From a virus (lineage: Duplodnaviria; Heunggongvirae; Uroviricota; Caudoviricetes), in IMG/VR virus record IMGVR_UViG_2744054964_000002, positions 1-43,041 of that record: a stretch of DNA of 43,041 bases, one strand, 5' to 3'. The notes below the pieces were generated by a model, which saw only the letters and a list, made by a program, of their open reading frames with translations, was not told the origin of the DNA and made no database searches. Positions within the stretch are counted from its first letter, which is position 1, and each line of letters starts with the position of its first letter. Made by a program: the position numbers and the translations under genes. This document shows, one piece after another, positions 1,195-27,970 of the stretch.

Positions 1195-1433
1195 TTTATC
1201 TTCTTTTTATCCTCCCACTCTTTGATTGACTCAGAGCGCCAGCGGTTAGGGTTGCCGGGCCAGTCAGGGGGTGGGAACGGGCATACGAAGCCCCGAGGCA
1301 TTGTGTCTGCACTTTGCCATGACCAAAGGGTTTTGCGTGAAATTTTGTAGCGACTGGTCAGGTCTGACGTTACCAAAATATCATCCATAGCTCTCTCCAG
1401 TTGCCCGTTCGGGCCATTCAAAATCTTTTTCAA
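1191..1433 (-). CDS. Putative excisionase / AlpA-like small DNA-binding protein
   Basis: 80-aa ORF immediately next to int, 4-nt overlap with the downstream ORF; Trp-rich basic segment ([10 protein letters not shown]...[11 protein letters not shown]) resembles small Xis/AlpA-type HTH proteins. Assignment by position and composition only. Confidence 0.45.
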
Positions 1434-1675
1434 CCAACCTGCCCGGGCAGGGAGCGGAGACGGCGCATGCCGGTCATCGCTGTGGCCACGTAGCTCGCCT
1501 TTCGGTTCACCACCTCCACCCAGACTTTCACGCCTTCAACCTTCACCGTATAAGTCTCTTTCATCTTGCTTCGCCCATAGTCGCCATATGTTTGCAAGTG
1601 AGCTGCCAGCGCAACATCGCAAGCGCGGCGACCAATAGGTGATTGCTTACTGCGATTAATCAGCTTCATCATCAC
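1430..1675 (-). CDS. Hypothetical protein (81 aa)
   Basis: ORF translationally coupled (ATGA-type 4-nt overlaps) to Dam upstream and putative xis downstream; no recognisable motif. Confidence 0.45.
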   Translation of the reverse strand: MMMKLINRSKQSPIGRRACDVALAAHLQTYGDYGRSKMKETYTVKVEGVKVWVEVVNRKASYVATAMTGMRRLRSLPGQVG

Positions 1676-2577
1676 TGCACTCCCAAAGTGGCTACGACAT
1701 CACTCGCTGTTTCGCGGGTACTGCCTTTGCTGGATATAGCCCGGCGAGCACTGACGCGGTGCAGCGTGAAGCCGTGCTGTTCGTAAAGTTCAATTACGCG
1801 CGGAGCGGTAGAATTGCTGATCACCACTTTTGCCCCCCGCTGGTGGGCTGCCACACAGCTTTCCGTAAGTTCTACCTGGCTATCCCATGAGAACCCACCA
1901 GCCGCGTAGTTAGTGAAACCAGCGGTGCCGGGCAGCGGTTCATAAGGCGGATCGCAGTAAACGACGTCACCATCACCTGCCAGCGCGAGCGTGCGCCTGA
2001 AGCCTGCATTCATGAATACGCATGCGTGAGCCTTCCGCTTAAATGCCCTGATCTCTTCTTCCGGGAAATATGGCGCTTTATATTTCCCAAAGCCGACGTT
2101 AAAAAAACCGTCCAGGTTATAACGGATCAGCCCGTTGAAGCAGTGCCGGTTGAGGTAAAGGAGCGCTGCTGCGCGCTCAACCGCATCCAGCCGCTGCGCG
2201 TTGAATGCTTCACGAATTACCGTGTAGTTTTCGGCATCATTCAGATGCCTGAATGCCTTCATTGCCTCATAGATCACCGAGTCGGGGACCACCGCCAGCA
2301 TCTGATACAGGTTAATCAGGTCAGCGTTGACGTCAGCCAGAAGAAAGCGTTCGTGCTTGTCTGAGTTAAGGAACACCGAGCCGCCACCCACAAAAGGCTC
2401 AATAAGGCGTTTCCCTGCGGGGATCAGGCGATCCAGTTCCGGCAGCAGCGAATATTTGCCGCCAGCCCATTTAAGGAACGGGCGCTGCCAAATTCGTGAT
2501 GCTGGATTGTGTGCGGGTGGCAGCTTAACCGCTTCATTGAATTGCTCAACGCAAACACTTACAAATCCGTAATTCAT
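1672..2577 (-). CDS. dam: DNA adenine methyltransferase (Dam family, GATC N6-adenine MTase)
   Basis: 301-aa ORF with FLKWAGGK (AdoMet-binding) near the N-terminus and DPPY catalytic motif (VVYCDPPYEP); Dam/D12-class hallmark motifs. Confidence 0.9.
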   Translation of the reverse strand: MNYGFVSVCVEQFNEAVKLPPAHNPASRIWQRPFLKWAGGKYSLLPELDRLIPAGKRLIEPFVGGGSVFLNSDKHERFLLADVNADLINLYQMLAVVPDSVIYEAMKAFRHLNDAENYTVIREAFNAQRLDAVERAAALLYLNRHCFNGLIRYNLDGFFNVGFGKYKAPYFPEEEIRAFKRKAHACVFMNAGFRRTLALAGDGDVVYCDPPYEPLPGTAGFTNYAAGGFSWDSQVELTESCVAAHQRGAKVVISNSTAPRVIELYEQHGFTLHRVSARRAISSKGSTRETASDVVATLGVQ

Positions 2578-2732
2578 GCTGCCACCTGCTTTTCGTTAAG
2601 TTCTTCAGCCAGTCGTTGCGCCTTCAGTGGGTTGGTAACGACATTACCCCACGGCAGCAACCATCCGTTTTTCTCTTTGAGCCAGGGAAGGCGCAGTGTG
2701 CCAACCCTGATGTCGTCGTGAGCGTGAGTCAT
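2574..2732 (-). CDS. Small hypothetical protein (52 aa), not in ORF track
   Basis: Hand-translated: MTHAHDDIRVGTLRLPWLKEKNGWLLPWGNVVTNPLKAQRLAEELNEKQVAA; its stop overlaps the dam start (ATGA) and its ATG overlaps the stop of the upstream 142-aa ORF (ATGA), which argues for real translational coupling. Confidence 0.3.
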   Translation of the reverse strand: MTHAHDDIRVGTLRLPWLKEKNGWLLPWGNVVTNPLKAQRLAEELNEKQVAA

Positions 2733-3157
2733 AGGATGGACTCCATTTCGTCGATGTAGAGGCCCTGAGCAATCAGGCGGCTACGGCGGGCGGCACGGGC
2801 TATGCACTCCTGCCGTCTACCTTCCTGCGATTGCTCAATGGCGCGCCGGGTGAACAGACGCGATTTGCCCTGCGGCGTCACAACCTTCGGCTTCGTGACC
2901 AGGTCGAAAGTCCGGTCGCAGATGCCGTCCCCGTTGATCCACTTTTCCGACTCAACGATCTGCGCTATCTGTCCGGAGCCGCGGGTAATACCGTTGGCTA
3001 CCCGGTTAAACTCGATGAGCGTTACGCCAAACTTCTCAGCGATTTCGCTGCCGGTTACCGGGCGGCCGCGCGTCTGAATCATCCAGATAACGCGCTCACG
3101 AAGGCCGGAGAATTGCCCGGTGCGCCCTGGCCTGCGGTAAAATGGTGTGCGTTTCAT
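2729..3157 (-). CDS. Hypothetical protein (142 aa), possible HTH
   Basis: ORF coupled to the exonuclease gene upstream (4-nt overlap); segment VTGSEIAEKFGVTLIEF looks like a helix-turn-helix; no firm family assignment. Confidence 0.5.
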   Translation of the reverse strand: MKRTPFYRRPGRTGQFSGLRERVIWMIQTRGRPVTGSEIAEKFGVTLIEFNRVANGITRGSGQIAQIVESEKWINGDGICDRTFDLVTKPKVVTPQGKSRLFTRRAIEQSQEGRRQECIARAARRSRLIAQGLYIDEMESIL

Positions 3158-3771
3158 GCTGCACGCTCTGTGATTTTCTGAATTTCCGATTCCAGATCTG
3201 CAAGGAAGCTCTTAACCTCAGATTCGATTTCGCGCGCCAGCTCTTCATCGAAATGAATCCGCTTCTTGAAATAGGCGAGGTCAGGCGGCAGGCGATCATC
3301 GAAACTAACGAAATCACACCATTTCCGCCCGGTGCACATCATCTGTGCATGCATTTGCAGCATGTACTGGCGCTTTGGCTCACCAGTTTTCAGCGTTTCA
3401 AGATGGGTCCAGGTGTTGGGGCATTTGATTTCGATAAGCCCGTCGTCGTTGACAAGTCCGTCCGGGCTGGCTGCGAATCCGGGTATGGTTGGGTGATCGA
3501 TGAGCCCAACTTCAGTGATTGCCGCATTGAACTCATTCAGCGCGTACATTTCGCGTGCCACTGGCTCAAGTTCAGTGCCGCGCATCATCGCGGCATTCGA
3601 AAACCCTTCCTCCAGCTTCCCGGTCAGCCGTTGGCAAATCAGCTCGGCCATGTAGTTCTGGCGGCTGGTGGAGTAGCCCGACTTAGTCCGGGCCATGACA
3701 TCAGCCAGGCGACTGGCTGTGACCTTGCCGCAGCGCGCAGCAAACCATTCAGGGGTGCGTTGCTCTATCAT
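3154..3771 (-). CDS. YqaJ-type phage exonuclease (PD-(D/E)XK, lambda-Exo-like functional partner of RecT)
   Basis: 205-aa ORF; N-terminal MIEQRTPEWFAARCGKVTASRLADVMA is the characteristic YqaJ viral recombinase domain start; sits directly downstream of recT with 4-nt overlap. Confidence 0.85.
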   Translation of the reverse strand: MIEQRTPEWFAARCGKVTASRLADVMARTKSGYSTSRQNYMAELICQRLTGKLEEGFSNAAMMRGTELEPVAREMYALNEFNAAITEVGLIDHPTIPGFAASPDGLVNDDGLIEIKCPNTWTHLETLKTGEPKRQYMLQMHAQMMCTGRKWCDFVSFDDRLPPDLAYFKKRIHFDEELAREIESEVKSFLADLESEIQKITERAA

Positions 3772-4529
3772 TCAGCCTCCGTCTCTGCGACATTGACAGG
3801 TTCGGCGTTGTCGACAGCAAGACTCATGTCATACATGCGTCGTTTCTCAACTGCGCCGATCACCTGTTTCTCTTCGGCGCTCAGCGCCACCCAGAACTCC
3901 TGATACTTAACGGTTCCAAGGCGCGCGGCGGACTCACCTTTTGCGATCAGTTCCGGGCGGCGGCTATCTGATTCATGGCCCGCATGAACCTCTGCCGTTG
4001 TTCCTTCAATTACTCGCTCTGCCTCGTCCTGGTCGAAGATGCCAGCGAAACCAAAGGCCAGACGCGCGCACTGGATCAGCGTCTTGTGGCGAAGCATGCG
4101 GGTAGGGTGGGACTGCCATGGCTGAGTGTTGCGTTTGCACTCTCCCATGTACTCGGTGACGATGGTCGGGTGCTTACGGTCTTTGCGGTAAATCTTGCAG
4201 GTACACGCGCCTTCCTCCTTGTCGTAAGAGAACTCCATGCCGTCAAACTGAGGATGCTCGTTGATAATGCGAGCCCATCCATCAACGCCGACGACCGGGA
4301 CAATCCCGCCTTTATCTGGGAATGCGTAAATCTCTTTGGTCCATGGGTTCAGGCCATACTGGTTGGCGACGATCAGCAGGGCTGTAAACTGCTCGTCCGT
4401 GACGTTGCCACCTTTGAACGCTGTATTCTTCAGCGTATTCATCAGGTCTGTACCGGCATCCATGCCGAGGCGTGCGGCCAGTTTCCCGGCCATGGTGGAA
4501 AGTGCAGTACTCATTGTTAAATCCCTCAA
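3768..4529 (-). CDS. recT: RecT-family single-strand annealing recombinase
   Basis: 253-aa ORF; core segment LLIVANQYGLNPWTKEIYAF...GVDGWARI is typical of RecT/Bet-like annealing proteins; paired with the YqaJ exonuclease. Confidence 0.9.
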   Translation of the reverse strand: MRDLTMSTALSTMAGKLAARLGMDAGTDLMNTLKNTAFKGGNVTDEQFTALLIVANQYGLNPWTKEIYAFPDKGGIVPVVGVDGWARIINEHPQFDGMEFSYDKEEGACTCKIYRKDRKHPTIVTEYMGECKRNTQPWQSHPTRMLRHKTLIQCARLAFGFAGIFDQDEAERVIEGTTAEVHAGHESDSRRPELIAKGESAARLGTVKYQEFWVALSAEEKQVIGAVEKRRMYDMSLAVDNAEPVNVAETEAE

Positions 4530-4532
4530 AAA

Positions 4533-4814
4533 TTAAAACGGGCAGGTTGGATGAAGGCGATCCCACTCTTCTTCGGCGCGGTCGTAACAGATGCGTGTGA
4601 CATAGTCGTTATAGGCTTCCTCTGCCTTTTCACCGACTAGTGCCATTTGCGCTTCTTTTGGGAGAAACAGGCTACTCATTTGCAGAGCATATTTCGGGAA
4701 CATGGCGATCAGTTCTTTCGCCCGGTCGTCGATCCACTTCTCTTTCTCGTCGGTGAGTTGCTGCTCAACCCAGCGCCGATCTTCGATGCGGTCGTAAGTG
4801 AGGTATGCGTTCAT
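4533..4814 (-). CDS. Hypothetical protein (93 aa)
   Basis: ORF in the leftward operon between the coiled-coil gene and recT; acidic; no recognised motif. Confidence 0.45.
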   Translation of the reverse strand: MNAYLTYDRIEDRRWVEQQLTDEKEKWIDDRAKELIAMFPKYALQMSSLFLPKEAQMALVGEKAEEAYNDYVTRICYDRAEEEWDRLHPTCPF

Positions 4815-4821
4815 GGTTGCC

Positions 4822-5793
4822 TCAGTAGTGGATTTTCGCGCAGGGGATCAGGTCATCCTTCAGAGCGGTGAGCACTTCGATAGCCTGTTCGCGGGTTAAG
4901 CTTGTGTGGCTGGTGAGCGCGTTAACGATGTTGGTGCCGACCGTCTTGCGGTGCTTCACGTCGGCTTCACGTTTTGCCTGCTCATCGGCGATGCGCTTCT
5001 CTTCGGCCAGACGTTTCTCTTCTGCCTGTTTTGCCTTGAGGCGCTCAGCTTCCACTGCCGCGGCTTTTTCGCGTTCTGCCCGGGCTTCTGCTTCCTGCTT
5101 CTCGCGAGCTGCACGCTGTTCCGCTTCGACGCGCTGGCGTTCAGCCAGCTCTGCACGTGCTTTCTCTTCAGCTTCACGGCGCGCTGCGGCTTCAATCTCT
5201 GCTTTGTGCATCGCTTCGGCATCGCGGCGGGCTTGTTCTGCCGCTTCCTGCTTCAGTCGTTCGTCACGTTCACGCTGAGCCTGTTCTGCCTGGCGGCGCT
5301 GCTCTTCGCGGTCACGGTCAAAATCCTTGTTCATCAGTAGAGCCATTTCGTGGTCCGCTTCGAACTTGGCAGCCAGCTCCTGATCAAACCTGATGTTCAT
5401 CTCCAGCGCTTCGGCGTGCATCGCGTTCATGGCTTCTTCAGCCTTAATGCGTTCCTGCTCGGCTTCCCATTCGGTGAGTGGGCGGCGGGTCGCATCGCGC
5501 AGCTCGTCGCAGGCATCAACGAATCGCTTAATTTCGGCCTCAGCCGGACGCACAGCCTCTTTCAGGCGCTTCAGGTACTCACGGCCCGGCTTTTCGATTG
5601 CCGTCTTGCTGCGGGACACCTGCGCTGCCAGAGAGGCAACACGGTCACGGCCTTTCTTCGTGGACAGGTCCGGCACTTCGTTTACAGCCTGGCGGATTTG
5701 CTCAAGGTACGCGTCAAGGCCGCCCGCTACGTAAAGCACTGGGGCCTGTTCCGGCTTGATTTCGATGACAGTTAAGTCCGTTACTTCGCTCAT
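4822..5793 (-). CDS. Coiled-coil protein with extreme E/A/R/K-rich low-complexity central region
   Basis: 323-aa ORF; central ~150 residues are near-repetitive (EAERLKAKQAEEKRLAEEKRIADEQAKREAD...); the many antisense ORFs in the track here are by-products of this bias. Confidence 0.6.
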   Translation of the reverse strand: MSEVTDLTVIEIKPEQAPVLYVAGGLDAYLEQIRQAVNEVPDLSTKKGRDRVASLAAQVSRSKTAIEKPGREYLKRLKEAVRPAEAEIKRFVDACDELRDATRRPLTEWEAEQERIKAEEAMNAMHAEALEMNIRFDQELAAKFEADHEMALLMNKDFDRDREEQRRQAEQAQRERDERLKQEAAEQARRDAEAMHKAEIEAAARREAEEKARAELAERQRVEAEQRAAREKQEAEARAEREKAAAVEAERLKAKQAEEKRLAEEKRIADEQAKREADVKHRKTVGTNIVNALTSHTSLTREQAIEVLTALKDDLIPCAKIHY

Positions 5794-5863
5794 GGTTTCT
5801 CCTGAAATTTGGATGTGCAGAACTCGCCCGCGTAATGCCAGGCCGATCGGTTGAATAGGGTGG

Positions 5864-6061
5864 TTACTGCTGCGCGATGGATTTCGCCGGGAACTCGCCG
5901 TTGCGGATGATGCTTTCTACCGGCCAGCACTCAGCTGACACTTTCTGCTCTGTAGCTGCCAGGCTGCATTCCTGCTGGCTGTCGTAAACGCCGAGAATGA
6001 CATCCTGATAATCACCGTTGGTCATTGCCACGGTCAGGACGAGTGCGAATAAAGTTTCCAT
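5864..6061 (-). CDS. Small hypothetical protein (65 aa from the internal ATG)
   Basis: Track ORF 5864-6115 begins with GTG; an internal ATG at 6061 (METLFALVLTVAMTNGDY...) overlaps the stop of the upstream small ORF (TGATG), suggesting coupled translation. Hydrophobic N-terminus. Confidence 0.35.
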   Translation of the reverse strand: METLFALVLTVAMTNGDYQDVILGVYDSQQECSLAATEQKVSAECWPVESIIRNGEFPAKSIAQQ

Positions 6062-6189
6062 CAGTGAAGAGTCCTCCCGATGGCGACGGCGTAAAGGCGT
6101 TTTGCTTCTTCCCACGCCGGAGCATTGCGATGGAGCACCGCGAACGACGCGAGCCGTTGGGCCTCTCTGATCTGCTGCTGGTTTACCAT
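6061..6189 (-). CDS. Small hypothetical protein (42 aa), not in ORF track
   Basis: Hand-translated MVNQQQIREAQRLASFAVLHRNAPAWEEAKRLYAVAIGRTLH; preceded by AGGAAA RBS; stop overlaps the next start. Confidence 0.3.
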   Translation of the reverse strand: MVNQQQIREAQRLASFAVLHRNAPAWEEAKRLYAVAIGRTLH

Positions 6190-6324
6190 GATTTCCTCTT
6201 GGCCTTATCGCGGCGAACGGAACGGTTAATACAAGACTTCAACGCATTTATTCAGTGTTTCATTGGGCGGTGGATGGCCGCCGGTTGTCATAACTTGAGT
6301 CACTCGTAAATAACTCCAGGTATG

Positions 6325-6348
6325 AAAAAGGCCGCCTACCTGGCAGCC
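6325..6348 (-). terminator. Candidate rho-independent terminator (minus strand)
   Basis: Minus-strand RNA GGCUGCC-AGGUA-GGCGGCC (7-bp stem with one G-U pair) followed by UUUUUC; lies about 75 nt downstream of the 6427-6768 ORF. Confidence 0.4.
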
Positions 6349-6426
6349 TCAACTTGAATGAGTGCCGGGATGTTTAGCCACGCCCGGCGCGTGCTCTCCT
6401 GCTATTCCCCAACAGCAAGAAATCGC

Positions 6427-6768
6427 TTACTCTTTAATTTCCCCAGCAGTAGAAAGGATATATTCATGCAAACCATGCGGACCGTGTGCCCTGACTGCGG
6501 AAGTGAGATGTTCAACCAGCCCGATGATTTTGACTTTGAGACAAATTTCACCGGCGTCAGTTGTGCTGACTGTGGTCGAGAAATCACTAAGGACGATGTT
6601 GTCAATCAGGCCACGGACACGGTCAAAAAACAGATCGACGACATGCTCAGGAATTCCCTGAAAGGAACTGGCTGGAAGTTCAAGTAACTTTAAAAGCTCC
6701 CCGGTCTGAGTAAGTACCTCGCTGGCGTCTACGTTAAGCAGTAGTGGCGCCGTTTTTTTATCTGCCAT
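6427..6768 (-). CDS. Hypothetical protein (113 aa); competes with the antisense ORF 6466-6687
   Basis: ATG at 6766-6768 preceded by GAGGAG RBS (5-nt spacer); same orientation as the surrounding leftward operon; followed by the candidate terminator at 6325-6348. No recognisable domain. Confidence 0.4.
   Translation of the reverse strand: MADKKTAPLLLNVDASEVLTQTGELLKLLELPASSFQGIPEHVVDLFFDRVRGLIDNIVLSDFSTTVSTTDAGEICLKVKIIGLVEHLTSAVRAHGPHGLHEYILSTAGEIKE
6466..6687 (+). CDS. Hypothetical small zinc-ribbon protein (73 aa); antisense to 6427-6768
   Basis: Internal ATG at 6466 with AAGGA RBS; paired CxxCG motifs (CPDCG ... CADCG, 19 residues apart) typical of a zinc ribbon; third-position GC looks higher than in the opposing frame (hand count). 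Confidence 0.35.
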   Translation: MQTMRTVCPDCGSEMFNQPDDFDFETNFTGVSCADCGREITKDDVVNQATDTVKKQIDDMLRNSLKGTGWKFK

Positions 6769-7313
6769 ACACACTCCTCTTTTTGTTTACCGTCAGCCCC
6801 TCGCAAAGAGCTGCTGGTAAACTTCGCCACACTCTCGCAGTGGCCGCGCACATGCCCTTGAGACCTTGTCGCTCATCGCCGCTCATAACCGGTGCGCGTC
6901 TGGCGTTCGCGCTGCTTTACCGGAGCTTGTTTTGATATAAGAACCTTGACCCATCACTACACAGGCTCGCCATTCGGCGACTCAGGGCGGCATCATTACT
7001 GCTGCATTGCCTTTAGGCTGCGGTCTGTCCGCTTTAGTTCTTCATTGGAATCACTCCTCTAAGTTGAATCAGCGCCCCATCATCGGAGCGCTTCAAATTG
7101 AGTGACTTATCAGCTCATCGCAGCGTGGTCCTCTACACCTACCGTACGCATACGGACTCAGTGCTTACCTCGATCCCATCGGGTGCCATTTCTTTTTGCC
7201 AGGAGAGCTACGGCTTGCCTGTCACTCAGTCTGATTTGTTAAAGAAGCAGGCGACTTGCTGTCCGCCGCTGGCTAACTTCGCTCAGCTGTCGATGTTTCG
7301 TTTCGATGAGCTG

Positions 7314-7342
7314 ATTATTAACTAATGGTTATTTTCAGTCAA
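7314..7342 (-). promoter_or_regulatory. Candidate leftward sigma70 promoter (possible pL)
   Basis: On the minus strand TTGACT (7342-7337), 16-17-nt spacer, then TAATAA/AATAAT (7320-7314); embedded in an AT-rich TGGTTA repeat region. Hexamer match only. Confidence 0.3.
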
Positions 7343-7460
7343 TAACCATTGGTTAATTATTTTGCCGTTGGTTATTAAGGTTATGATTTATTGGTTAATT
7401 TAGTTCTGTTATGGATTTGTGCAGTACGTGCTATGCTGCAAAAAACATCAGGAGGTAGCT

Positions 7461-7667
7461 ATGGAACGAGATGAACGTGCAGATGAACGAATAGCCTTCA
7501 TGGCTGGAGAGGTTGGGTGCGTAGTGTTCGAGCTGGTTTATAACGGAATTGAAATCAATAAGGACAACATTGTGGGATTTCTGGAAGGGAAGCGCAAAGC
7601 CGTAGGAAACGTGATCCATAAGGGGATGCTACGGGATGCGGCTGAGATGGTGCGGAAGGGCAAATAA
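7461..7667 (+). CDS. Hypothetical protein (68 aa)
   Basis: ATG at 7461 preceded by AGGAGG RBS and an extended -10 like element (TGcTATGCT, 7429-7437); convergent with the cI-adjacent cassette. Confidence 0.4.
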   Translation: MERDERADERIAFMAGEVGCVVFELVYNGIEINKDNIVGFLEGKRKAVGNVIHKGMLRDAAEMVRKGK

Positions 7668-7686
7668 AAACCCGGCGCTGGCCGGG
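7662..7686 (-). terminator. Rho-independent terminator ending the cI-adjacent cassette
   Basis: Perfect 6-bp GC stem CCCGGC-GCUG-GCCGGG (7671-7686) followed on the minus strand by UUUUUAUUU, starting 8 nt after the stop of the 7695-8045 gene. Confidence 0.6.
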
Positions 7687-7694
7687 TGATAGCG

Positions 7695-8045
7695 CTATTT
7701 CAAAACAAGTCCGTTTAAAGCATCAAGAATTTTAGAAACATAATTACCGAATACATAAACACAAAAAGCAAACACAACTGATAGAATGGCAGAAGAAGCT
7801 TTAAGTGTTGTCTTCATGGATTTTACTCCATTTTCGATTTCACTCAGCCTTGAGTCGATGCTCTTAATGTCTGATTTAATCTCAGCAATATCTCGCTTAA
7901 TGTATTCTACATCGGATTCTAAGCGTGCAACTCTGTATTGCATGTCATCGCCTCCGCCATTACCGTTGCCATGCCTCAAAGTATGCACGTTGAATTCTTC
8001 GTTAGCAACTGGTTGGCTTCGTTTGAGATATGCTGAATTTGCCAT
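7695..8045 (-). CDS. Coiled-coil protein with C-terminal transmembrane helix (XhlA-like architecture); cassette gene B
   Basis: 116-aa ORF; Gly-rich N-terminus (HGNGNGGGDD), heptad-like coiled coil (RLESDVEYIKRDIAEIKSDIKSIDSRLSEIENGVKSMK), hydrophobic C-terminal segment (AILSVVFAFCVYVFGNYV). Start is 1 nt after the stop of gene A. AT-rich by eye. Confidence 0.6.
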   Translation of the reverse strand: MANSAYLKRSQPVANEEFNVHTLRHGNGNGGGDDMQYRVARLESDVEYIKRDIAEIKSDIKSIDSRLSEIENGVKSMKTTLKASSAILSVVFAFCVYVFGNYVSKILDALNGLVLK

Positions 8046-8046
8046 G

Positions 8047-8472
8047 TCAGACTTTCCATTCTTTTGATAAGTAGAAATAACACTCTGAATCGTGAACTAA
8101 TCTACTTTTATCTTTATCATCAATGACATGAAGTGACAGTGTTACCTTGTAAACACCCTCTTCTTTAACAAGGATGTTCATCAGAGACATATTTTCAATG
8201 CTTACTGACTCACTTCCAGAGGTCGTGCCAGCCACAATAGGGTCTGATTGCAATGACTGACCACTACCGAAATCAATTCTCTGGTCGCCAAAAAATAGGT
8301 CTACATCAACACGATAGTTAACTTTAGTTTTAATAATTAGCCCAAAGGAAACGTCAATGCTGATTTTCCCTGAGTGCTCATCTGGCTTTATCCATGGCTG
8401 TGGATAATTTAAGGAGCGCGATATTTTACCGGGAAATATCTGGGATACATATAAAAATGAAATCTTTTCCAT
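8047..8472 (-). CDS. Hypothetical protein (141 aa); cassette gene A
   Basis: ORF with GAGGA RBS 6 nt upstream of the ATG, 72 bp downstream of the cI stop; AT-rich codon usage by eye; no recognised domain. Confidence 0.6.
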   Translation of the reverse strand: MEKISFLYVSQIFPGKISRSLNYPQPWIKPDEHSGKISIDVSFGLIIKTKVNYRVDVDLFFGDQRIDFGSGQSLQSDPIVAGTTSGSESVSIENMSLMNILVKEEGVYKVTLSLHVIDDKDKSRLVHDSECYFYLSKEWKV

Positions 8473-8544
8473 CGCTTATCCTCGTTAGCAAGCTATTTGT
8501 TACCAGATCTTCCCATGATCACTAACCCATCAGCATCTTCGTCT

Positions 8545-9321
8545 CTACAGCAGCACCGAGTACCAGAAGAGACGGCCAATTATCTCGACATCATCAATAT
8601 CAGCCTCTTCGTCTGGGTAGGAGTCGTTGTTGTAACTGCGGATGATCAGCTTCCCACCTGGCTTACGATACAGTTGTTTAATGCGCTTGAGTTGACCATT
8701 CCCGCCATCTGTCTGACCAATGGCATACAGTTTCCCATCAACTATGCGTTTGTTGTTCGTATCGACGGCTACAGTCGTACCATCCGGTATCACAGGTTCC
8801 ATGCTGTCGCCAGTAGCAGGGAAACACAGGATGCCAGACCCATCTGTGTTAGCTCCAACGCGGCGGAGGGTTGCCTTTGAGAACCTGAGCTTAAAACCAT
8901 TGTGATCTTCGCTGTGTACGCGTCCATCGCCACACGCAAATTCAATATCCTTAAGAAACGGCACTTCAACCTCGTCAGCAGGAAGCGGTGTGTTTTTATC
9001 CCAGGCGTCAACAGTTCCCCATTCAGATTCTGGAGGGATAGATGACTCCCTACGCAGTTCAGGTTCGGGATCATTCCTTCCGTATTCAAGCCACTCAGGC
9101 CGTACCCCAAGCCAGCGGCTAAGGGCAAGGATATTGGTTTGGTCTGGTATCGCTGATGCGTTAAGCCATTTCCAGATCCCGGGCTCAGATACAGTAATTC
9201 CTTGGGACTTCATAGCCTCTCTGATCCTACCAGCCTGCCCACGACCACCAACGCCAGCATCAAGCAATGCAGCGCGAAGTCTTTTCGAGAATTCTTCTTT
9301 TAAATCGTCTTTTTTAACCAT
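8545..9321 (-). CDS. cI: CI-like prophage repressor (N-terminal HTH, C-terminal LexA/S24-type autocleavage domain)
   Basis: 258-aa ORF; C-terminal domain contains the S24 serine motif (ATGDSMEP) and downstream lysine (KRIVDGKLYAIG); divergent from a cro-like gene across an operator-bearing intergenic region. Confidence 0.9.
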   Translation of the reverse strand: MVKKDDLKEEFSKRLRAALLDAGVGGRGQAGRIREAMKSQGITVSEPGIWKWLNASAIPDQTNILALSRWLGVRPEWLEYGRNDPEPELRRESSIPPESEWGTVDAWDKNTPLPADEVEVPFLKDIEFACGDGRVHSEDHNGFKLRFSKATLRRVGANTDGSGILCFPATGDSMEPVIPDGTTVAVDTNNKRIVDGKLYAIGQTDGGNGQLKRIKQLYRKPGGKLIIRSYNNDSYPDEEADIDDVEIIGRLFWYSVLL

Positions 9322-21679: not shown

Positions 21680-21922
21680 ATGTCACAATCAGCGCTTGCT
21701 ACTGAATTAGAACTCACTGACGATGAGTTGGATTCCATACCTCTATCACCTGAAGACCTTGAGGAGAATACAGGGCATTCAGGCGATATGGTATATGAGT
21801 ACTATTTCTATGTTCCCGATACTACCCCTGAAGATATTCTTAGCAAGAAAGGATGGGAAATAGGTGAGTGTGTTTACTTATCTATTAATGTTTTTGATGA
21901 CCCGGATTCGGAGCAAGAATAG
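21680..21922 (+). CDS. Small highly acidic protein (80 aa)
   Basis: ATG at 21680 after AGGAGG RBS; about 30 percent Asp/Glu (ELELTDDELDSIPLSPEDLEE...DDPDSEQE); own terminator downstream. Confidence 0.5.
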   Translation: MSQSALATELELTDDELDSIPLSPEDLEENTGHSGDMVYEYYFYVPDTTPEDILSKKGWEIGECVYLSINVFDDPDSEQE

Positions 21923-21938
21923 AACGATAAGCATAATG

Positions 21939-21961
21939 CACCGCCTCCGGGCGGTTTTTTT
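21939..21961 (+). terminator. Rho-independent terminator
   Basis: CCGCC-TCCG-GGCGG stem followed by TTTTTTT. Confidence 0.65.
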
Positions 21962-21983
21962 ATGTCAGTACACTGGAGCGTTT

Positions 21984-22622
21984 ATGGCAACACTCAAAGA
22001 CCTTTCTCAGCAATTAAAGAAGGTACAAAAGCAGGTGCCATATGCTACAGCACTAGCTATGACAAAAGTTGTTCGTCAAATAGAAACGGCACAGAAAACA
22101 GCGTTCGAACGACATCTGGAGAGCCCGACACCGTTTACCGTTAAATCAGTTGGTTCGGTGGCGGCAAGGAAGAACAACCTGACTGCAAAGGTTTTTGTCC
22201 GCGATACCGCGGCTGGTTATCTGGAACCATTCGAGTTAGGTGGAGAGCATAAGCTCAATAGCCAAGCGCTATTGAACCCCAAGAACGTCAAGCTAAACAA
22301 ATACGGCAACATGCCGCGTAATAAGCTCTCACAGCTTAAAGCAAAGGAAAATGTATTCGTAGGTGAGGTTGATGGCGTTAACGCTGTCTGGCAGCGTAAG
22401 AAGCCGATGAAAGCTAAGAAGCGACGGGCCAAACGTTCCGCTAACGGGACGCGAAGACCGAAACGCAAACAGCGTTCTCCAAAGCTTTTGATCCGGTTTG
22501 GTGATGCGCTACCTGTGACTCCAGTGCTGGGGTATATGGATAGGGCCCGTACCATGGCGAACGCACTGCTACCGTCTGCTTTAAATCAGGCGATAGCAGA
22601 AGCCATCAGGACGGCAAAATAA
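21984..22622 (+). CDS. Hypothetical protein with basic Lys/Arg-rich segment (212 aa)
   Basis: Internal ATG at 21984 (the upstream part of the track ORF contains the terminator); KKPMKAKKRRAKRSANGTRRPKRKQR basic tract; no confident family. Confidence 0.5.
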   Translation: MATLKDLSQQLKKVQKQVPYATALAMTKVVRQIETAQKTAFERHLESPTPFTVKSVGSVAARKNNLTAKVFVRDTAAGYLEPFELGGEHKLNSQALLNPKNVKLNKYGNMPRNKLSQLKAKENVFVGEVDGVNAVWQRKKPMKAKKRRAKRSANGTRRPKRKQRSPKLLIRFGDALPVTPVLGYMDRARTMANALLPSALNQAIAEAIRTAK

Positions 22623-22632
22623 AAGCAGTAAC

Positions 22633-23136
22633 TTATAAGTTAATTTCGCAAGCTTTTATGAAGCTGTTTACTGCAGTTGTCGATCCAGAAACATTGGCTG
22701 ACATGGAATGCTGGTTTCCGCCATCCTTTGTTTGCACACCAACTAACACTTTGGATTTCGCCCCCTGAAGCTGCTTAAGCACTGTTTTTAGTTGGTCCGC
22801 GTCATCCGATTGAATCTGGAGGCTCTGAACATTACGTCTTGAAAGGGTAGCATCGAGCTTCACTGCGGTATTCCCGTCGACCTTCATTATCAGGTCCATT
22901 GGTACCTCTGATAGTGATTCGGTGCTTTTATCCATTTCAACGTATGCCGCCGATAGCTTTTCTTTAGTGCAGTCAAACACAATGGCGCCATTGTCGGATG
23001 AAACCTCGCCAAGCATCATTGCTTTCTTACCACCAGAGAAAAGGTCATCTTCAGTATTAGTTACCCACTGGGCATGAGCAATTGGTGATGCCAGCACTGC
23101 GGCTACGAAAGTTATTTTGATTATATTGTTACCCAT
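22633..23136 (-). CDS. Secreted hypothetical protein (167 aa), opposite-strand moron between lysis genes and cos
   Basis: ATG at 23134-23136 after AAGGAG RBS; N-terminal signal peptide MGNNIIKITFVAAVLASPIAHA; only minus-strand gene in the late region, in the position bor occupies in lambda. Confidence 0.55.
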   Translation of the reverse strand: MGNNIIKITFVAAVLASPIAHAQWVTNTEDDLFSGGKKAMMLGEVSSDNGAIVFDCTKEKLSAAYVEMDKSTESLSEVPMDLIMKVDGNTAVKLDATLSRRNVQSLQIQSDDADQLKTVLKQLQGAKSKVLVGVQTKDGGNQHSMSANVSGSTTAVNSFIKACEINL

Positions 23137-23229
23137 TACATTCTCCTTGTATTGAATAGGAATAATCATAGTCGGAGCGAATGGTCGAAGCCAATAAAAA
23201 AATGGGTCCTTCCTGAGACTTTTGTAAGG

Positions 23230-23260
23230 TACGGGCATTGCGCGCCGCGGTGTTTTCCTA
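23230..23260. other. Candidate cosN-like region
   Basis: GC-rich GGGCATTGCGCGCCGCGGTGTTTTCCTAGCTA resembles, from memory, the lambda left cohesive end (GGGCGGCGACCTCGCGGGTTTTCGCTA); lies about 170 bp upstream of the small terminase gene. Confidence 0.3.
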
Positions 23261-23279
23261 GCTACAACTTTCAGATTTG

Positions 23280-23427
23280 TGTCCCATGTCCCACCTCTGG
23301 CGATCATTACGGACACCTCGCCAGCTCTGGCTATTCCAGTTTATTCCAGTGGGACATTCTGGTGGGACATGGCAAAAATGTCCCAGGCGAATGTCCCACC
23401 CCAGAAAATGTCCCAGGTGATGTCCCA
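23280..23427 (+). repeat. Array of eight TGTCCCA / TGGGACA heptamers (candidate cosB-type small-terminase binding sites)
   Basis: TGTCCCA at 23280, 23287, 23379, 23392, 23409, 23421; inverted TGGGACA at 23350, 23363; the last copy abuts the terminase small subunit start codon. Confidence 0.6.
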
Positions 23428-23996
23428 TGACCACGATGAACCAGAGTCAGTACGCACAACATTCAGGTGTGGATCGCAAAACAATTGGTCGGTGGATTAA
23501 AGCCGGGCGCTTCATTGTGATGGACGGAGACCTGATTGACGTAGAGGCCAGCGATGCGGCATTGAAGAAAAACCGCGATGGCAAAGACCCGCGCGCCTCG
23601 AACGCGAAGAAAAAGAAAACTCCCGTCGTTAGCGATAACGATGATGACGGTGATGAAATCAATAAAACTGTCCGCCAGATAATGCTCACTGAAGGGGCAG
23701 ATCTTTCGAGAGAGGAAGCGGGACGTATCCGCGAGAATTACATGGCCCTGCAGGCAAAGCTGCAGTATGAAAAAGACAGCGGCCAGCTTATTGAGCTGAC
23801 AGCAGCCGAGGAGGTTTTATTCAACGCCTTTCGCCAACAGCGTGATGCCTGGCTTAACTGGCCGTCCAGGGTGGCGCCGCTAATGGCTGCTGATCTGGAT
23901 GTACCGGCGGACAGGATGACAGAGGTGCTGATTGAACATGTCCACAAACACATCTCAGTCCTCGGAGAGCCAGAGTTTAACCCGGCAGAAGATTGA
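23427..23996 (+). CDS. Terminase small subunit (lambda Nu1-like)
   Basis: 189-aa ORF; N-terminal HTH-like YAQHSGVDRKTIGRWIKAG similar to Nu1 N-terminus; immediately upstream of the large terminase. Confidence 0.75.
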   Translation: MTTMNQSQYAQHSGVDRKTIGRWIKAGRFIVMDGDLIDVEASDAALKKNRDGKDPRASNAKKKKTPVVSDNDDDGDEINKTVRQIMLTEGADLSREEAGRIRENYMALQAKLQYEKDSGQLIELTAAEEVLFNAFRQQRDAWLNWPSRVAPLMAADLDVPADRMTEVLIEHVHKHISVLGEPEFNPAED

Positions 23997-26061
23997 GCGT
24001 CTTGAATTAAGCGTCCGCAAAGGCTGGACACCCCCGCCGCGTATCAGTGTGCCGCAGTGGGCAGATGACTATCGTAAGCTGGCAAAAGAGGCTGGGAGCA
24101 CTTCGGGAAACTGGGAAACATCGACGGTAGAAATTGCCCGCGGACCGATGCTTGCCGCGACGGAGTCCGGGGTTCATATCATCACTGTAATGTGCTGTAC
24201 CCAGTTGATGAAGACAGCACTGCTGGAAAACCTTTTTGGCTATTTTGCCCACCTCGATCCTTGTCCGATACTGCTGCTGCAGCCGAAAGAAGAAGCCGCT
24301 GAACAGTTTTCGAAAGAGCGTATTAGCCCGCTGGTAAGGGTGACGCCGGTACTGCGTAAAATCATCGGTGATTCGAAACAGAAAAGCTCGAAAGAAACCA
24401 TTCTTTACAAGGCGTTCACTGGCGGATTTCTGGCGCTGGCGGGTGCTGGTAGCCCTGATAACCTTGCGCGTCGTCCGATTCGTGTCCTGCTGGCGGATGA
24501 AGTGGACAAGTACCCGATAACCCGCGAAGGCGATCCAATTGCGCTGGCCGAAGAGCGTACAGCGACATTTGGCCTGACCTGGCTGTCTGTACGCGCCTGT
24601 TCGCCGACGGTGGAGGATGAGAGCCGCATTGCTGACAGCTACGCCGACTCCGATCAGCGCCGGGCATCTGTGGTTTGCCCGCACTGTGGCCACCGCCAGT
24701 TCCCCGACTTTTTCAAACACGTTCAGTGGCCGAAAGAGGGAGATAAACACCTGACTAAATCGGCGATGCTCTATTGCGAATGCTGTGGTAGTGGCTGGTC
24801 CGAAGGACAGCGCCTCAGAGCTCTGCAAACTATTCGATGGCATCAGACGCGCCCATTTGAGTGCTGCGGGGAGCGGCACTCACCGCTGATGGATTATGAC
24901 CTTGCCTGGCGGGCGGCAGACGAGGGCAGCGTTGAAAAGGTCTGGCAATGGTCAGAGTCGGAACGGCATGCGGTCTATCGCGCAATCTGCCCCTCCTGTG
25001 GAAAGGAGGCAGTCGATAACCACCACGCGGGGTACCAGGCATCCAAGCTTTTCAGCCCCTGGCAAAAAGATAAGCCGTCGGATATTGCGAAAAAATATAT
25101 CGATGCGAAGGGCGATCCGGATAAGGAACAGGCGTGGTGGAATACCCAGATGGGGCTTCCGCACCGACCTAATCATGGGAAACAGCTCCCTGTTGATGTT
25201 CTGCTGGCGCGCCGGGAAATATTTCCGGCCGTCGTTCCGGACGGGGTGGCATTGTTAACAGCTGGAGTTGATACCCAGGACGATCGCTTCGAAATTACGA
25301 TCACCGGCTGGGGGAGAGATGAAGAATCGTGGTCGGTCGCGCATGACGTTATTTATGGTGACCTTGAGACGGAAGAACCCTGGAAGCGACTGGATGCATA
25401 CCTGAAACAGATCTGGCGACGTGGTGACGGGCGCGGCCTGAATATCATGGCAACGTGCATGGACTCCGGTGGCCACCATACGCAGAAGGTATACGAATTC
25501 GCCAAAGAGCGTCTTGGCCGTCGTGTCTGGGCAATTAAGGGGGAGTCTGCACAGGGAGGTAAACGCAATCCTGTCTGGCCGACCAAACGACCATCATCGA
25601 AAAGCAAAGCCAGTTTCCGCCCTGTCATTCTGGGGGTTAACTCAGCGAAAGACGTGATACGCGGTCGCCTGCATCTTGAGCCACCCAAACCTGGCGCCGC
25701 CGCTGCGGGTTATATGCATTTTCCTGACGATCGCGATCTCGGGTACTTCAATCAGCTGCTGGCGGAGCGACTGGTTTACAAAGTCATTTCCGGGCAGCGG
25801 TACAGTATCTGGGAAGCAATACCAGGACGAGCTAACGAAGCGCTTGACTGCCTCGTTTACAGCTATGCCGCGCTGTGCGGTCTCAAACATATGGGGTTAA
25901 AACTCAACGTCCGGGCCGCCAACCTCGAAGCCGATCCGGATAAGTTCCTGCCAGCGCCAGTTGGACAGGAAGAAAAAATCAATTACGAGCTGCCGGGTGC
26001 GGTTATTGAAGAACCAGCGCCGGTCAAACGTAAGCGAATATCGCAACTCCTGCCGAAATAA
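23938..26061 (+). CDS. Terminase large subunit (lambda gpA family)
   Basis: About 707 aa from ATG 23938; blocks align by eye with lambda gpA (VCPHCGHRQF vs ACPHCGEEQY; LTAGVDTQDDRFEITITGWGRDEESW vs LTAGIDSQLDRYEMRVWGWGPGEESW; ANEALDCLVYSYAAL vs RNEALDCFVYALAAL). Confidence 0.9.
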   Translation: MSTNTSQSSESQSLTRQKIERLELSVRKGWTPPPRISVPQWADDYRKLAKEAGSTSGNWETSTVEIARGPMLAATESGVHIITVMCCTQLMKTALLENLFGYFAHLDPCPILLLQPKEEAAEQFSKERISPLVRVTPVLRKIIGDSKQKSSKETILYKAFTGGFLALAGAGSPDNLARRPIRVLLADEVDKYPITREGDPIALAEERTATFGLTWLSVRACSPTVEDESRIADSYADSDQRRASVVCPHCGHRQFPDFFKHVQWPKEGDKHLTKSAMLYCECCGSGWSEGQRLRALQTIRWHQTRPFECCGERHSPLMDYDLAWRAADEGSVEKVWQWSESERHAVYRAICPSCGKEAVDNHHAGYQASKLFSPWQKDKPSDIAKKYIDAKGDPDKEQAWWNTQMGLPHRPNHGKQLPVDVLLARREIFPAVVPDGVALLTAGVDTQDDRFEITITGWGRDEESWSVAHDVIYGDLETEEPWKRLDAYLKQIWRRGDGRGLNIMATCMDSGGHHTQKVYEFAKERLGRRVWAIKGESAQGGKRNPVWPTKRPSSKSKASFRPVILGVNSAKDVIRGRLHLEPPKPGAAAAGYMHFPDDRDLGYFNQLLAERLVYKVISGQRYSIWEAIPGRANEALDCLVYSYAALCGLKHMGLKLNVRAANLEADPDKFLPAPVGQEEKINYELPGAVIEEPAPVKRKRISQLLPK

Positions 26062-26069
26062 GGAAAATC

Positions 26070-26333
26070 ATGTTCAACCGGAACACCAGCCTGCTTGCCG
26101 GCGCAATGACTGACGATCAGCTCAGGGATGCGCTTGCGAAAGCTCAGCAGGCGTACATTGATTTAGCAACCGGGAGCCACGGTGTTTCGTTTTCCTATAC
26201 GCAGGGAGACGGGACGCGATCAGTGTCCTATCAGCAAAGCACCCTAGCTGATCTGCTGGCCCTGATTCAACTTCTGCAGGCGCAACTGGGGATTATCTCT
26301 CGTCCCCGGAAACCAGCGAGGTTTAGATTCTGA
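26070..26333 (+). CDS. Head-tail joining protein (lambda gpW-like)
   Basis: 87-aa ORF between terminase and portal; pattern L..A..A..DL.TG...DG.R.V.F...L..I..L..Q.G...R.P..F parallels lambda gpW. Confidence 0.7.
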   Translation: MFNRNTSLLAGAMTDDQLRDALAKAQQAYIDLATGSHGVSFSYTQGDGTRSVSYQQSTLADLLALIQLLQAQLGIISRPRKPARFRF

Positions 26334-27970
26334 TGAATAAAGTACAGATACTGGGCTCTGATGGGCAGCCGTTGCGACAGCAGCGTCCCTCTATGCTGGT
26401 GGGGGGGAGCCGCGTACCTTATGACGCAGCTGACTCTTTCAGCGATCAACTGGCGAACTGGCAACCCGCGCTGTGGTCCCCGGACAATGAAATTAACATT
26501 TACCGGGATCGCATCGTGTCCCGCGCACGCGATCTGGTCCGTAATGACGGCTGGGCAAACGGTGCGGTCACACGTCTGCTGGATAATGCGGTTGGTGCCA
26601 ACTTCCGCCCCATCATGAAACCCGATTACCGTGTTCTCAGAATGATCACCGGAAACAAGGCGTTTGATGCGTCCTGGGCGGAAGAGTACGGAAAAGCACT
26701 GGACGGGCACTGGCGGACCTGGAGTAACGATCCTGGCCGGTATTGTGATGTTGAACGAAAACTCACCGTGTCGCAGATGTTACGCCTGGGATTTCGTCAC
26801 AAGCTTATTGACGGGGATGCTCTGGCCATTCTCCAGTACAGAACTGACAGGCTTGGTCCCGGAAGAGGGCGTTACGCCACCACGGTACAGATTGTCGATC
26901 CTGACCGCCTCAGTAATCCTCAGCAGAATTTCGATATGCCAAATGTCCGTGGTGGCGTTGAAATTGATGCGGACGGTGCGCCGGTTGCTTACCACATCAG
27001 GGAGGCCCATATCGGTGACTGGTGGAGCGGGGCTAAAACCATGACGTGGCAGCGTATCCCGCGTGAAACTGACTGGGGCCGCCCGCATGTGGTTCACGAT
27101 TTTGATCATGAGCGTGGCGCGCAGCACCGTGGTAACGGCATCCTGACTCCGGTTATTCAGCGTCTGAAAATGCTGGTGAAGTATGACCAGAGTGAGCTTG
27201 AGGCAGCAATTCTTAATGCCATATTTGCCGCTTACATTGAGTCACCCTATGACCCTGCGATGGTTCAGTCTGCCCTGGGCGAGACCTATGACGAGTCGGA
27301 GTTAGGCACTTATCAGGACGGGCGTGTTGAGTTCCATAACGATCGGCGTCTGACACTTCAGAATGGTGCCCGAATGCCCATTCTTTATCCTGGTGAGAAA
27401 ATCACGACGGTTAACGCGGCGCGGCCCTACAGCAATTTTGAAGTCTTCGAATCTGCTGTTCTCCGTAATTTTTCTTCAGGAACAGGGTTGTCCCCACAGC
27501 AGGTCACCCAGGACTGGTCTGACGTTAACTACAGTTCTGCACGCTCCTCGTTGCTGGAGGCATGGAAAACACTGACTCGCCGCCGGGACGATTTTTCTAC
27601 CGGCTTCGCTCAGCCCATTCTCACCGCCTTTGTTGAAGAAGTTCACGACAATGAGGATTTACCCCTGCCCGCAGGCGCACCTGATTTTGTTGACGCCAGA
27701 GCCGCGTATTCTCGCGCGCGCTGGATGGGGCCAGGGCGCGGCTGGGTGGATCCGGTTGCAGAGAAAAAAGGCGCCATTCTTGGTCTGGATGCCGGACTTT
27801 CCACCCTCGAGATTGAGGTGGGTGAAAACGTCGGTGAAGACTGGGAAGAAGTGCTTGATCAGCGCCAGAGAGAAATTGAGTCATGTCTTAAACGCGGATT
27901 ACCGCTTCCGAGCTGGGCACAGGTTGACCAGTTTGCGAGCCAGACCATTACCGATCCGGAGGAAAAGTGA
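26333..27970 (+). CDS. Portal protein (lambda gpB family)
   Basis: 545-aa ORF; DLVRNDGWANGAV and VFESAVLRNFSSGTGLSPQQVTQDWSDVNYSSARSSLLEAW align with lambda gpB segments. Confidence 0.9.
   Translation: MNKVQILGSDGQPLRQQRPSMLVGGSRVPYDAADSFSDQLANWQPALWSPDNEINIYRDRIVSRARDLVRNDGWANGAVTRLLDNAVGANFRPIMKPDYRVLRMITGNKAFDASWAEEYGKALDGHWRTWSNDPGRYCDVERKLTVSQMLRLGFRHKLIDGDALAILQYRTDRLGPGRGRYATTVQIVDPDRLSNPQQNFDMPNVRGGVEIDADGAPVAYHIREAHIGDWWSGAKTMTWQRIPRETDWGRPHVVHDFDHERGAQHRGNGILTPVIQRLKMLVKYDQSELEAAILNAIFAAYIESPYDPAMVQSALGETYDESELGTYQDGRVEFHNDRRLTLQNGARMPILYPGEKITTVNAARPYSNFEVFESAVLRNFSSGTGLSPQQVTQDWSDVNYSSARSSLLEAWKTLTRRRDDFSTGFAQPILTAFVEEVHDNEDLPLPAGAPDFVDARAAYSRARWMGPGRGWVDPVAEKKGAILGLDAGLSTLEIEVGENVGEDWEEVLDQRQREIESCLKRGLPLPSWAQVDQFASQTITDPEEK

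Follow-up and report, generated by a model that had tools for sequence, protein, structure and literature searches.

A probable lambda-like cos site with a TGTCCCA repeat array upstream of the small terminase gene in an Escherichia coli prophage

The sequence analysed here (IMG/VR virus record IMGVR_UViG_2744054964_000002, positions 1 to 43,041; hereafter the window, meaning this whole stretch of 43,041 bases) carries an integrase, a CI-like repressor, O-like and DnaB-like replication genes, a Q-like antiterminator, and holin, endolysin and spanin genes, and these lysis genes are followed by packaging and head genes and a contractile-tail sheath. The window is a lambdoid temperate myovirus prophage of E. 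coli. Our subject is the segment at 23204-23427, a candidate cos (DNA packaging) site, which has a leftward gene (22633-23136) on one side and, on the other, a rightward operon headed by the small terminase gene terS. The terS gene (23427..23996, + strand) encodes a protein of 189 amino acids that matches phrog_57 (E 4.6e-36). Its end is overlapped by the start of terL (23932..26061, + strand), which encodes a gpA-family large terminase with ATPase (PF05876, E 2.2e-64) and endonuclease (PF20454, E 2.1e-78) parts. As at lambda-type cos sites, a gpA-family TerL thus adjoins the site behind the small-terminase gene, and the operon continues with gpW (26070-26333) and a lambda-family portal gene (26333-27970). 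This order, TerS, gpA TerL, gpW and lambda portal, is by sequence that of the lambda packaging module.

Comparison of positions 23100-24100 with 50,697 phage records by megablast and blastn gave no DNA-level match, and relatives among isolated phages were reached only through a protein-level search with TerL. The closest, at 48% TerL identity, are Serratia phage vB_SspM_BZS1 (MT843275) and Citrobacter phage phiNP (OR565852). The BZS1 record opens with an annotated 12-nt left cohesive end, GCATTGCGCGCC, which was obtained with PhageTerm and confirmed when the sequences of virion ends were set against the prophage junction (PMC7556043). The same 12-mer occurs once in the window, within a GC-rich block, at 23235..23246 (+ strand). 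The identity with the BZS1 5′ overhang is 12/12 despite the modest TerL similarity, and BZS1 had been found through TerL, independently of any cos sequence. The window, BZS1 and phiNP also share the upstream flank AAAAAAATGGGTCCTTCC...ACGG and the downstream flank GCG...CTAGCTA...AACTTT...ATTTG. Since both the 12-mer and its flanks match the mapped BZS1 end, we predict that this is cosN, with a top-strand nick at 23234/23235 and a bottom-strand nick at 23246/23247 (±1 nt), leaving a 12-nt 5′ cohesive end. A first nick register derived from lambda (GGCATTGCGCGC) gave way to the one mapped in BZS1.

Five viral or metagenomic contigs start or end 0-4 nt from the predicted ends, where a rough estimate gives ~0.04 expected by chance: L142 (1-13), L144 and L130 (the latter two on the reverse strand) start at cosN, L097 ends 2 nt past the 12-mer, and L164 (455-485) ends exactly at ...GGTACGG. 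These coincidences far exceed random breaks, although without nucleotide resolution, and fit physical DNA ends at cos in the samples sequenced. Between cosN and the repeats that follow, the interval at 23247..23279 (+ strand) holds GCGGTGTTTTC, a CTAGCTA box (23258-23264) and a stretch rich in A/T with ATTTG at its end; its AGCTA and TTT/ATTT runs were kept in 17/17 diverse relatives aligned, whichever heptamer type comes next.

Upstream of cosN, at 23204..23210 (+ strand), lies a cosQ-like heptamer, GGGTCCT (extended form TGGGTCCTTCC), of which the whole window has a single copy with both strands counted. It is identical to the lambda cosQ, which is found ~30 bp upstream of the nick, and it stands at -31 to -25 from the left end against -30 to -24 in lambda. 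The heptamer is conserved in BZS1, phiNP and the E. coli relatives, with which homology starts at 23203. A scan that left cosQ out of its pattern (GGCATTGCGCGCC, 9-13 unspecified bases, AGCTA) returned 112 distinct flank sequences: GGGTCCT stood at -31 or -30 in 86 of them, GGGTCCC took its place in ~24, and neither was present in ~3, one of which is probably a chance hit. From its sequence and position, GGGTCCT at 23204-23210 probably serves as the packaging-termination signal. The original prediction, which had begun the region at 23230, took in cosN and cosB but not cosQ.

The third element is a cluster of heptamers. TGTCCCA is found 10 times in the window, both strands counted, where shuffled sequences average 5.2, and eight of the ten copies fall within 148 bases (23280-23427), for which the shuffle rate would give ~0.02. 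Six are on the + strand (23280, 23287, 23379, 23392, 23409 and 23421) and two on the - strand (23350 and 23363), the last one ending on the A of the terS ATG at 23427, just as had been claimed from the sequence: eight copies, in both orientations, ending at the terS start. Counted from base pair 1 of the overhang, they form a direct pair at +46 and +53, an inverted pair at 116 and 129, and direct copies at 145, 158, 175 and 187. The extended consensus is R-TGTCCCA, position -1 being A in 79% and G in 20% of 341 sites in relatives.

The proximal tandem pair (23280..23293, + strand; +46 to +59) is the equivalent of the lambda R3 site and probably the primary anchor of TerS. A tandem pair at +46 to +48 was present in all 61 of the TGTCCCA- and GGTAACA-type regions mapped (37 and 24, respectively), and in most loci of other repeat classes a family-specific 7- to 9-mer forms a tandem pair at +42 to +62; with some distant TerS types no repeats were seen. 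Further on, at 23349..23399 (no strand assigned; +116 to +164), the two inverted heptamers (23350 and 23363, -) face two direct ones (23379 and 23392, +) in a dyad with arms of 22 nt, 86% complementary and 7 nt apart, and this 2+2 layout recurs in the GGTAACA-type relatives (122-, 134-, 152+, 165+). The distal heptamers, 23409-23415 and 23421-23427 (23409..23427, + strand), flank the AGGTGA Shine-Dalgarno sequence. The GGTAACA type (GGTAACAATG) and BZS1 (GGTAACAGATG) likewise have a heptamer that abuts the ATG or overlaps it.

We also searched the 56-bp spacer at +60 to +115 for the integration host factor (IHF) consensus WATCAANNNNTTR, allowing up to one mismatch: there was none in the E. coli TGTCCCA-type loci L006 and L007, which are close relatives of the window, or in the GGTAACA-type relatives examined, and a scan of 127 regions, in which the window's own region counts as a duplicate of an identical locus, gave no recurring position in this interval. 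A weak IHF-like match recurs at about +31 in 22 of the 127 regions. A 7-bp inverted repeat in the spacer (CTGGCGA...TCGCCAG) was discarded as it is not conserved in relatives. Just before the inverted heptamers, the direct repeat TATTCCAGT occurs twice, 10 bp apart (23332-23350). It is kept in L006 and L007, TATTCC being present also in the GGTAACA-type locus L008, and it could belong to an extended TerS site or be recognised by a host factor; the 23332-23350 region has no IHF consensus.

In regards to the function of the heptamers, the most telling evidence comes from relatives in which they are replaced. In L008 (E. coli ES2) and L009 (ECCTRSRTH03) the cosQ-cosN core is nearly identical to that of the window up to ~+44, beyond which the array is built of GGTAACA at 47+, 54+, 122-, 134-, 152+, 165+ and 189+, with the ATG at +196; the layout (2, 2 inverted, 3-4) is thus that of the window with another heptamer. 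Identity in a sliding comparison of the window with L008 is 95% over 23206-23265, at most 60% (mostly at most 50%) over 23285-23796, and 82-97% from ~23800, so that the divergent block covers exactly the repeat array and TerS residues 1 to ~120. The TerS of the window and of the GGTAACA-type E. coli relatives are 45% identical over residues 1-70 and 84% from residue 100 to the end. Co-variation was scored in every distinct IMG/VR region that carries the core and has a readable TerS motif (65; 13 more were not scorable). The TGTCCCA-type regions have G-V-(D/N)-RKT in 39/39, as in ...YAQHSGVDRKTIGRWIKAG..., and the GGTAACA-type regions G-V-S-RKT in 26/26, as in ...FARLHGVSRKTVTMWKSRG..., with zero exceptions among the 65 distinct loci. 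The TerS C-terminus, for its part, assorts independently of the heptamer type: L031 and the window are 69% identical in the N-terminal and 29% in the C-terminal part. These patterns fit an exchange of the N-terminal, presumably DNA-binding part together with cosB, the C-terminal part being kept separately. In lambda the C-terminal part of the small terminase binds TerL (PMC4669245). More TerS types occur on the same 12-mer, with their own tandem pair (TTCACAC, TGTTCGCA, TGTCCGCA or GGTAACG) at the same position, and heptamers, cosQ and cosN are all conserved in relatives at 84% overall nucleotide identity. The original prediction of a cosN plus cosB with a heptamer unlike the lambda R sites is therefore upheld, by the 12/12 match to the BZS1 end and by repeats from +46 that co-vary with the TerS N-terminus.

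Two observations on individual relatives can be added. In L039 (~+215 to +270) and L051 (~+230 to +270), which belong to other specificity classes, extra family repeats (GTAACG/GTTACC; GCGAACA/TGTTCGC) lie in both orientations inside the coding sequence of the terS linker, which recalls the N15 rR2 site inside gene 1. TGTCCCA-type cos sites with TerS proteins 89% and 46% identical to that of the window were also found in assemblies labelled Vagococcus sp. WN89Y (L183) and Martelella alba (L214), respectively; the labels denote a Firmicute and an alphaproteobacterium, and contamination or mislabelling of the assemblies is more probable than a true host range.

The TerS protein itself is predicted to begin with a winged helix-turn-helix (~4-49), to continue with a disordered linker rich in K and D, and to end in a helical part common to relatives. 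No Pfam family was above threshold, Phage_Nu1 (PF07471) giving no hit even at E up to 10 while the lambda Nu1 control matched it at E 2.5e-100, and residues 4-29 had only sub-threshold matches to HTH_28 and HTH_17. BLASTP and hhalign aligned TerS 4-61 with gpNu1 3-61 (28% identity, E 0.004, hhalign probability 8%), and a PDB sequence search with TerS returned only low-complexity noise, e.g. RecA fusions. In an AlphaFold2 model based on 25 homologues (mean predicted local distance difference test score 68, ~75 in the N-terminal domain), the N-terminus forms a strand, helices at 6-13 and 17-26, a beta-hairpin and a helix at 39-49, followed by the linker and long helices, and the N-terminal domain is accordingly predicted, on this model, to be a winged helix-turn-helix. 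The best Foldseek matches were Pukovnik Xis, BldC, RacA and the gpNu1 DNA-binding domain (1j9i; root-mean-square deviation 2.4 A over 52 columns), all at E >0.5, and are consistent with DNA binding by the modelled domain, not proof of it. Xis and BldC recognise short direct repeats arranged in arrays, and by analogy offer a plausible model of how the TerS domain could read the heptamers.

It should be noted that an A followed by the repeat reads ATG-TCC-CA, so that upstream in-frame ATGs give spurious N-terminal extensions of TerS (MSH..., MSHGNVPCP...). Such extensions appear in open reading frame calls and database proteins (L055, L031, L035, L020 and others; P0054, P0021), and the real start in the extended relatives is probably the M just before (T/N)Q..YA.H.

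Taken together, we read 23204-23427 as a cos site with the lambda-like order cosQ, cosN, cosB, terS, at a probability of roughly 85%, and its heptamers behave as a cosB, likely the docking site of the small terminase. During late lytic growth, the winged helix-turn-helix of TerS would bind the R-TGTCCCA repeats (tandem pair, 2+2 dyad and two distal copies) and position the gpA-type TerL on cosN. TerL would then nick the two strands 12 nt apart, which would leave GCATTGCGCGCC (23235-23246) as the 5′ overhang, and packaging would proceed rightwards from the cosB/terS end until the next cos, where the terminal cut would need cosQ (GGGTCCT, 23204-23210).

Several points weigh against this interpretation. 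That this site is cut, and that TerS binds the repeats, is in both cases inferred from homology and co-variation. The nick register is taken from one relative, BZS1, and contig L142 starts 1 nt earlier. The similarity between TerS and gpNu1 is weak (hhalign probability 8%, Foldseek E >0.5, no Pfam Phage_Nu1), and since the 56-bp spacer has no IHF consensus, the lambda R3-I1-R2 hairpin model is not simply transferable. The search pattern that gathered the first IMG/VR set itself imposed cosQ, for which the cosQ-free scan is the correction; its conservation is not an artefact of that pattern, because the scan still recovers GGGTCCT or GGGTCCC. Finally, the last heptamers cover the ribosome-binding site and the start codon, which is also compatible with a regulatory role.

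This last point leads to the alternative that survives best, even if we find it unlikely: the heptamers could be mainly operators of the terminase operon, with TerS possibly as the regulator, and cosB would be elsewhere or minimal. Besides the two heptamers that flank the Shine-Dalgarno sequence and overlap the ATG, and the start-codon heptamer kept in both repeat types, the MerR/Xis/BldC-like winged helix-turn-helix fold class is also used by transcription factors. However, operators would hardly explain an array at a fixed distance of +46 from cosN throughout the distinct regions mapped (37 of the TGTCCCA type and 24 of the GGTAACA type), or repeats that co-vary with the TerS N-terminus and not with the upstream genes, which vary among relatives. 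The promoter and terminator scan of the cos region gave a single promoter-like site, serving the divergent upstream gene, and neither promoter nor terminator on the + strand, while a Q antiterminator is present for late expression; moreover, in BZS1, which forms particles with mapped cohesive ends, the interval from cosN to terS holds no more than the three proximal repeats. A secondary autoregulation through the heptamers, alongside a cosB role, is possible.

More doubtful still is that the prophage is defective and the site an inactive relic that is no longer cut. Some relatives are clearly remnants, such as the one in E. coli HS, where a pseudogenised integrase lies directly beside cos, but the window retains a complete lambdoid gene set (integrase, CI, O/DnaB-like, Q, lysis, terminase, portal and sheath), and all eight heptamers, cosQ and cosN are intact, as they are in relatives of 84% overall nucleotide identity. 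The 1-kb region around cos is present at no less than 99% identity in 34 complete RefSeq E. coli genomes, and at 80-90% in 24 more, and over the 1-kb cos/terS query E. coli ECCWS199 and KFu022 match at 100%; a silent copy would in any case leave the nature of the site unchanged. Headful (pac-type) packaging, with the repeats as a pac recognition site without fixed ends, is barely credible: TerS-bound repeat arrays do occur at pac sites, e.g. in SPP1 (PMC4669245), but here the gpA-family TerL includes a gpA endonuclease domain, cosQ is present, and defined 12-nt 5′ cohesive ends are known from a relative that shares the 12-mer.

In regards to the left-hand neighbour of the candidate cos site, the leftward gene encodes 167 amino acids with a signal peptide (MGNNIIKITFVAAVLASPIAHAQ...), matches phrog_19473 and comes with a promoter-like site of its own (23194 to 23165, - strand). 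It occupies 22633-23203 with its promoter region and is inserted between cosQ and a conserved pre-cos gene (21864-22622, a homologue of BZS1 p72), which in the relatives examined stops just before cosQ. Homology begins at 23203 in some near-identical relatives and in all more distant ones, and the 167-residue gene looks like a moron inserted right at the right end of the genome.

The cos core (GGGTCCY, ~24 bases, GCATTGCGCGCC) is not confined to E. coli prophages, its signature being found in 97 loci of species-representative genomes from Gamma- and Betaproteobacteria, with one Alphaproteobacteria-labelled record and one from a deltaproteobacterial metagenome-assembled genome. At least five repeat classes follow it (TGTCCCA, GGTAACA, TTCACAC, TGTTCGCA/TGTCCGCA and GGTAACG), in 'complex' cassettes with 7-9 repeats including a 2+2 dyad or in 'simple' ones with 2-3 repeats. 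A broader view, which we hold to be about evenly balanced between true and false, is that one near-invariant cosQ-cosN core serves a very large group of prophages, in which interchangeable cassettes of cosB and the TerS N-terminus set packaging specificity, and that satellites may redirect a helper's terminase. If it is true, packaging specificity and phage-satellite pairings would be readable directly from sequence.

Some loci (L050, L245, L181, L253, L243, L249, L209, L210 and L272) combine the same core with TTCACAC/GTGTGAA-type repeats and encode a protein of ~190 amino acids that is TerS-like only over its first ~69 residues; no gpA-like TerL was found within 3.5 kb of these TTCACAC-type loci (L050, L245 etc.). 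L050 (IMG/VR UViG_2882471735_000005, 15.7 kb, 1-9103) has a P4-type primase and a fusion of a tape-measure N-terminus with a lytic transglycosylase, and in L245 (Pectobacterium jejuense, 3100-7950) the module abuts the host dnaG-rpoD. The Rpp proteins of phage-inducible chromosomal islands (PICI) redirect the terminase of their helper. The core loci without TerL look like satellites with a PICI-like cos-rpp arrangement, and might hijack this terminase family. Several core copies per genome were observed in Xenorhabdus yunnanensis (L186, L222, L237, L238) and X. vietnamensis (L190, L197, L200, L208), often on very small contigs, and three on the 116-kb plasmid pSP2 of Rouxiella badensis (L229, L231, L240); they could be related prophages, satellites or assembly breaks at cos.

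The 12-nt end GCATTGCGCGCC was already known from BZS1, and literature searches for the 12-mer and for TGTCCCA in connection with terminases returned the BZS1 paper only and no description of these repeats. In the literature searched, no account was found of the cosQ element, the TGTCCCA cosB or the cassette exchange of cosB with the TerS N-terminus. With this site, the probable genome ends and the direction of packaging are set for a family of prophages whose TerS has been annotated only as 'hypothetical protein' and which is widespread across E. coli and other Enterobacterales. The site also provides natural, sequence-readable swaps of cosB/TerS specificity on a constant cosQ/cosN, such as were built by hand in the lambda, 21 and N15 work, and this set of swaps could help resolve how winged helix-turn-helix small terminases read short repeats. 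Possible uses are the annotation of cos ends in prophages and metagenomic contigs, the design of cosmid or transducing vectors for these phages, and the prediction of which phages, and possibly satellites, package each other's DNA.

Among isolated phages, BZS1 and phiNP are the nearest point of comparison. They share with the window the 12-mer, TGGGTCCTTCC ~31 nt upstream (TGGGTCCYTCC as a common pattern), the CTAGCTA box (AGCTA at +26 to +30), a tandem pair at ~+46 to +48, the order terS, gpA terL, gpW and lambda portal, and a contractile tail. Their cosB, in contrast, fits three copies of GGTAACA (48+, 55+ and 67+) into an interval of 65 nt and is followed by the ATG at +75, where the window has eight copies of TGTCCCA and its ATG at +193. 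The TerS N-termini differ likewise, with ~40-48% identity over residues 1-70 and the motif SRKTVT.WK in BZS1 against DRKTIGRWIK in the window, so that the cosB repeat and the TerS recognition region are not shared. The BZS1 publication gives the overhang only, cosQ and cosB not being described there (PMC7556043). The short GGTAACA form (three repeats, ATG at +75) occurs in BZS1 (L003, 1-75), phiNP (L004, 1757-1845) and 11 IMG/VR loci, e.g. L012, L013 and L015, and coexists with the long form of 7-9 repeats (ATG at ~+196). It looks like a deletion between the proximal and distal repeats, and shows that the proximal repeats suffice in BZS1, a particle-forming phage with mapped cohesive ends.

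In regards to lambda, the GC-rich block that had been likened to its left cohesive end is real, and the comparison was right in function and layout, but the overhang itself matches lambda's GGGCGGCGACCT at only 5/12 bases when the BZS1 register is used and at 3/12 with the alternative one. The 'lambda-like phages' of Feiss et al. have overhangs near GGGCGGCGACCT, that of N15 differing at 2 positions and that of gifsy-1 at 3 (PMC4669245), and the window's overhang falls outside this group. As for the alignment with lambda proposed as a check, a gapped local alignment of the lambda cos junction with the region scored 18, against 14.8 ± 2.1 for shuffles (maximum 24), which is not significant, and the lambda resemblance therefore rests on short anchored elements. 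These are the same cosQ GGGTCCT at nearly the same distance, GTTTTC at +18 to +23, a 12-nt 5′ overhang and a first TerS site at ~+46 to +60 (both predicted in the window), sites in both orientations, the terS ATG at +193 (+191 for lambda Nu1), a gpA-family TerL, and a TerS with an N-terminal winged helix-turn-helix (likewise predicted in the window) and a C-terminal part common to relatives. The differences concern mainly cosB, which in the window has eight 7- to 8-bp repeats arranged as 2 + (2+2 dyad) + 2 and in lambda three longer R sites in the order R3-I1-R2-R1; no IHF consensus site, such as I1 in lambda, was found between the first and second sites in loci of the window type, and the window's TerS, unlike lambda Nu1, lies outside Pfam Phage_Nu1.

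The position of the first TerS site, putative in the window, is similar. In lambda TerS contacts R3 at bp 55-63, and in N15 R3 spans bp 48-60 (PMC9026076); the proximal pair of the window (+46 to +59) occupies this place (PMC4669245, PMC9026076). The window family is a lineage distinct from N15, Monarch, lambda and 21, with other repeat sequences, and is known here from sequence alone. The simple cosB of N15 and the complex one of Monarch (PMC4669245) are paralleled by the short (3) and long (7-9 repeats) forms of the same specificity, and, as the Feiss laboratory described for N15/Monarch and lambda/21, the same cosQ and cosN are combined with different cosB sites and TerS recognition regions. 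The natural TerS chimeras, with a swapped N-terminal and a conserved C-terminal part, thus parallel the lambda-21 hybrid (PMC9026076).

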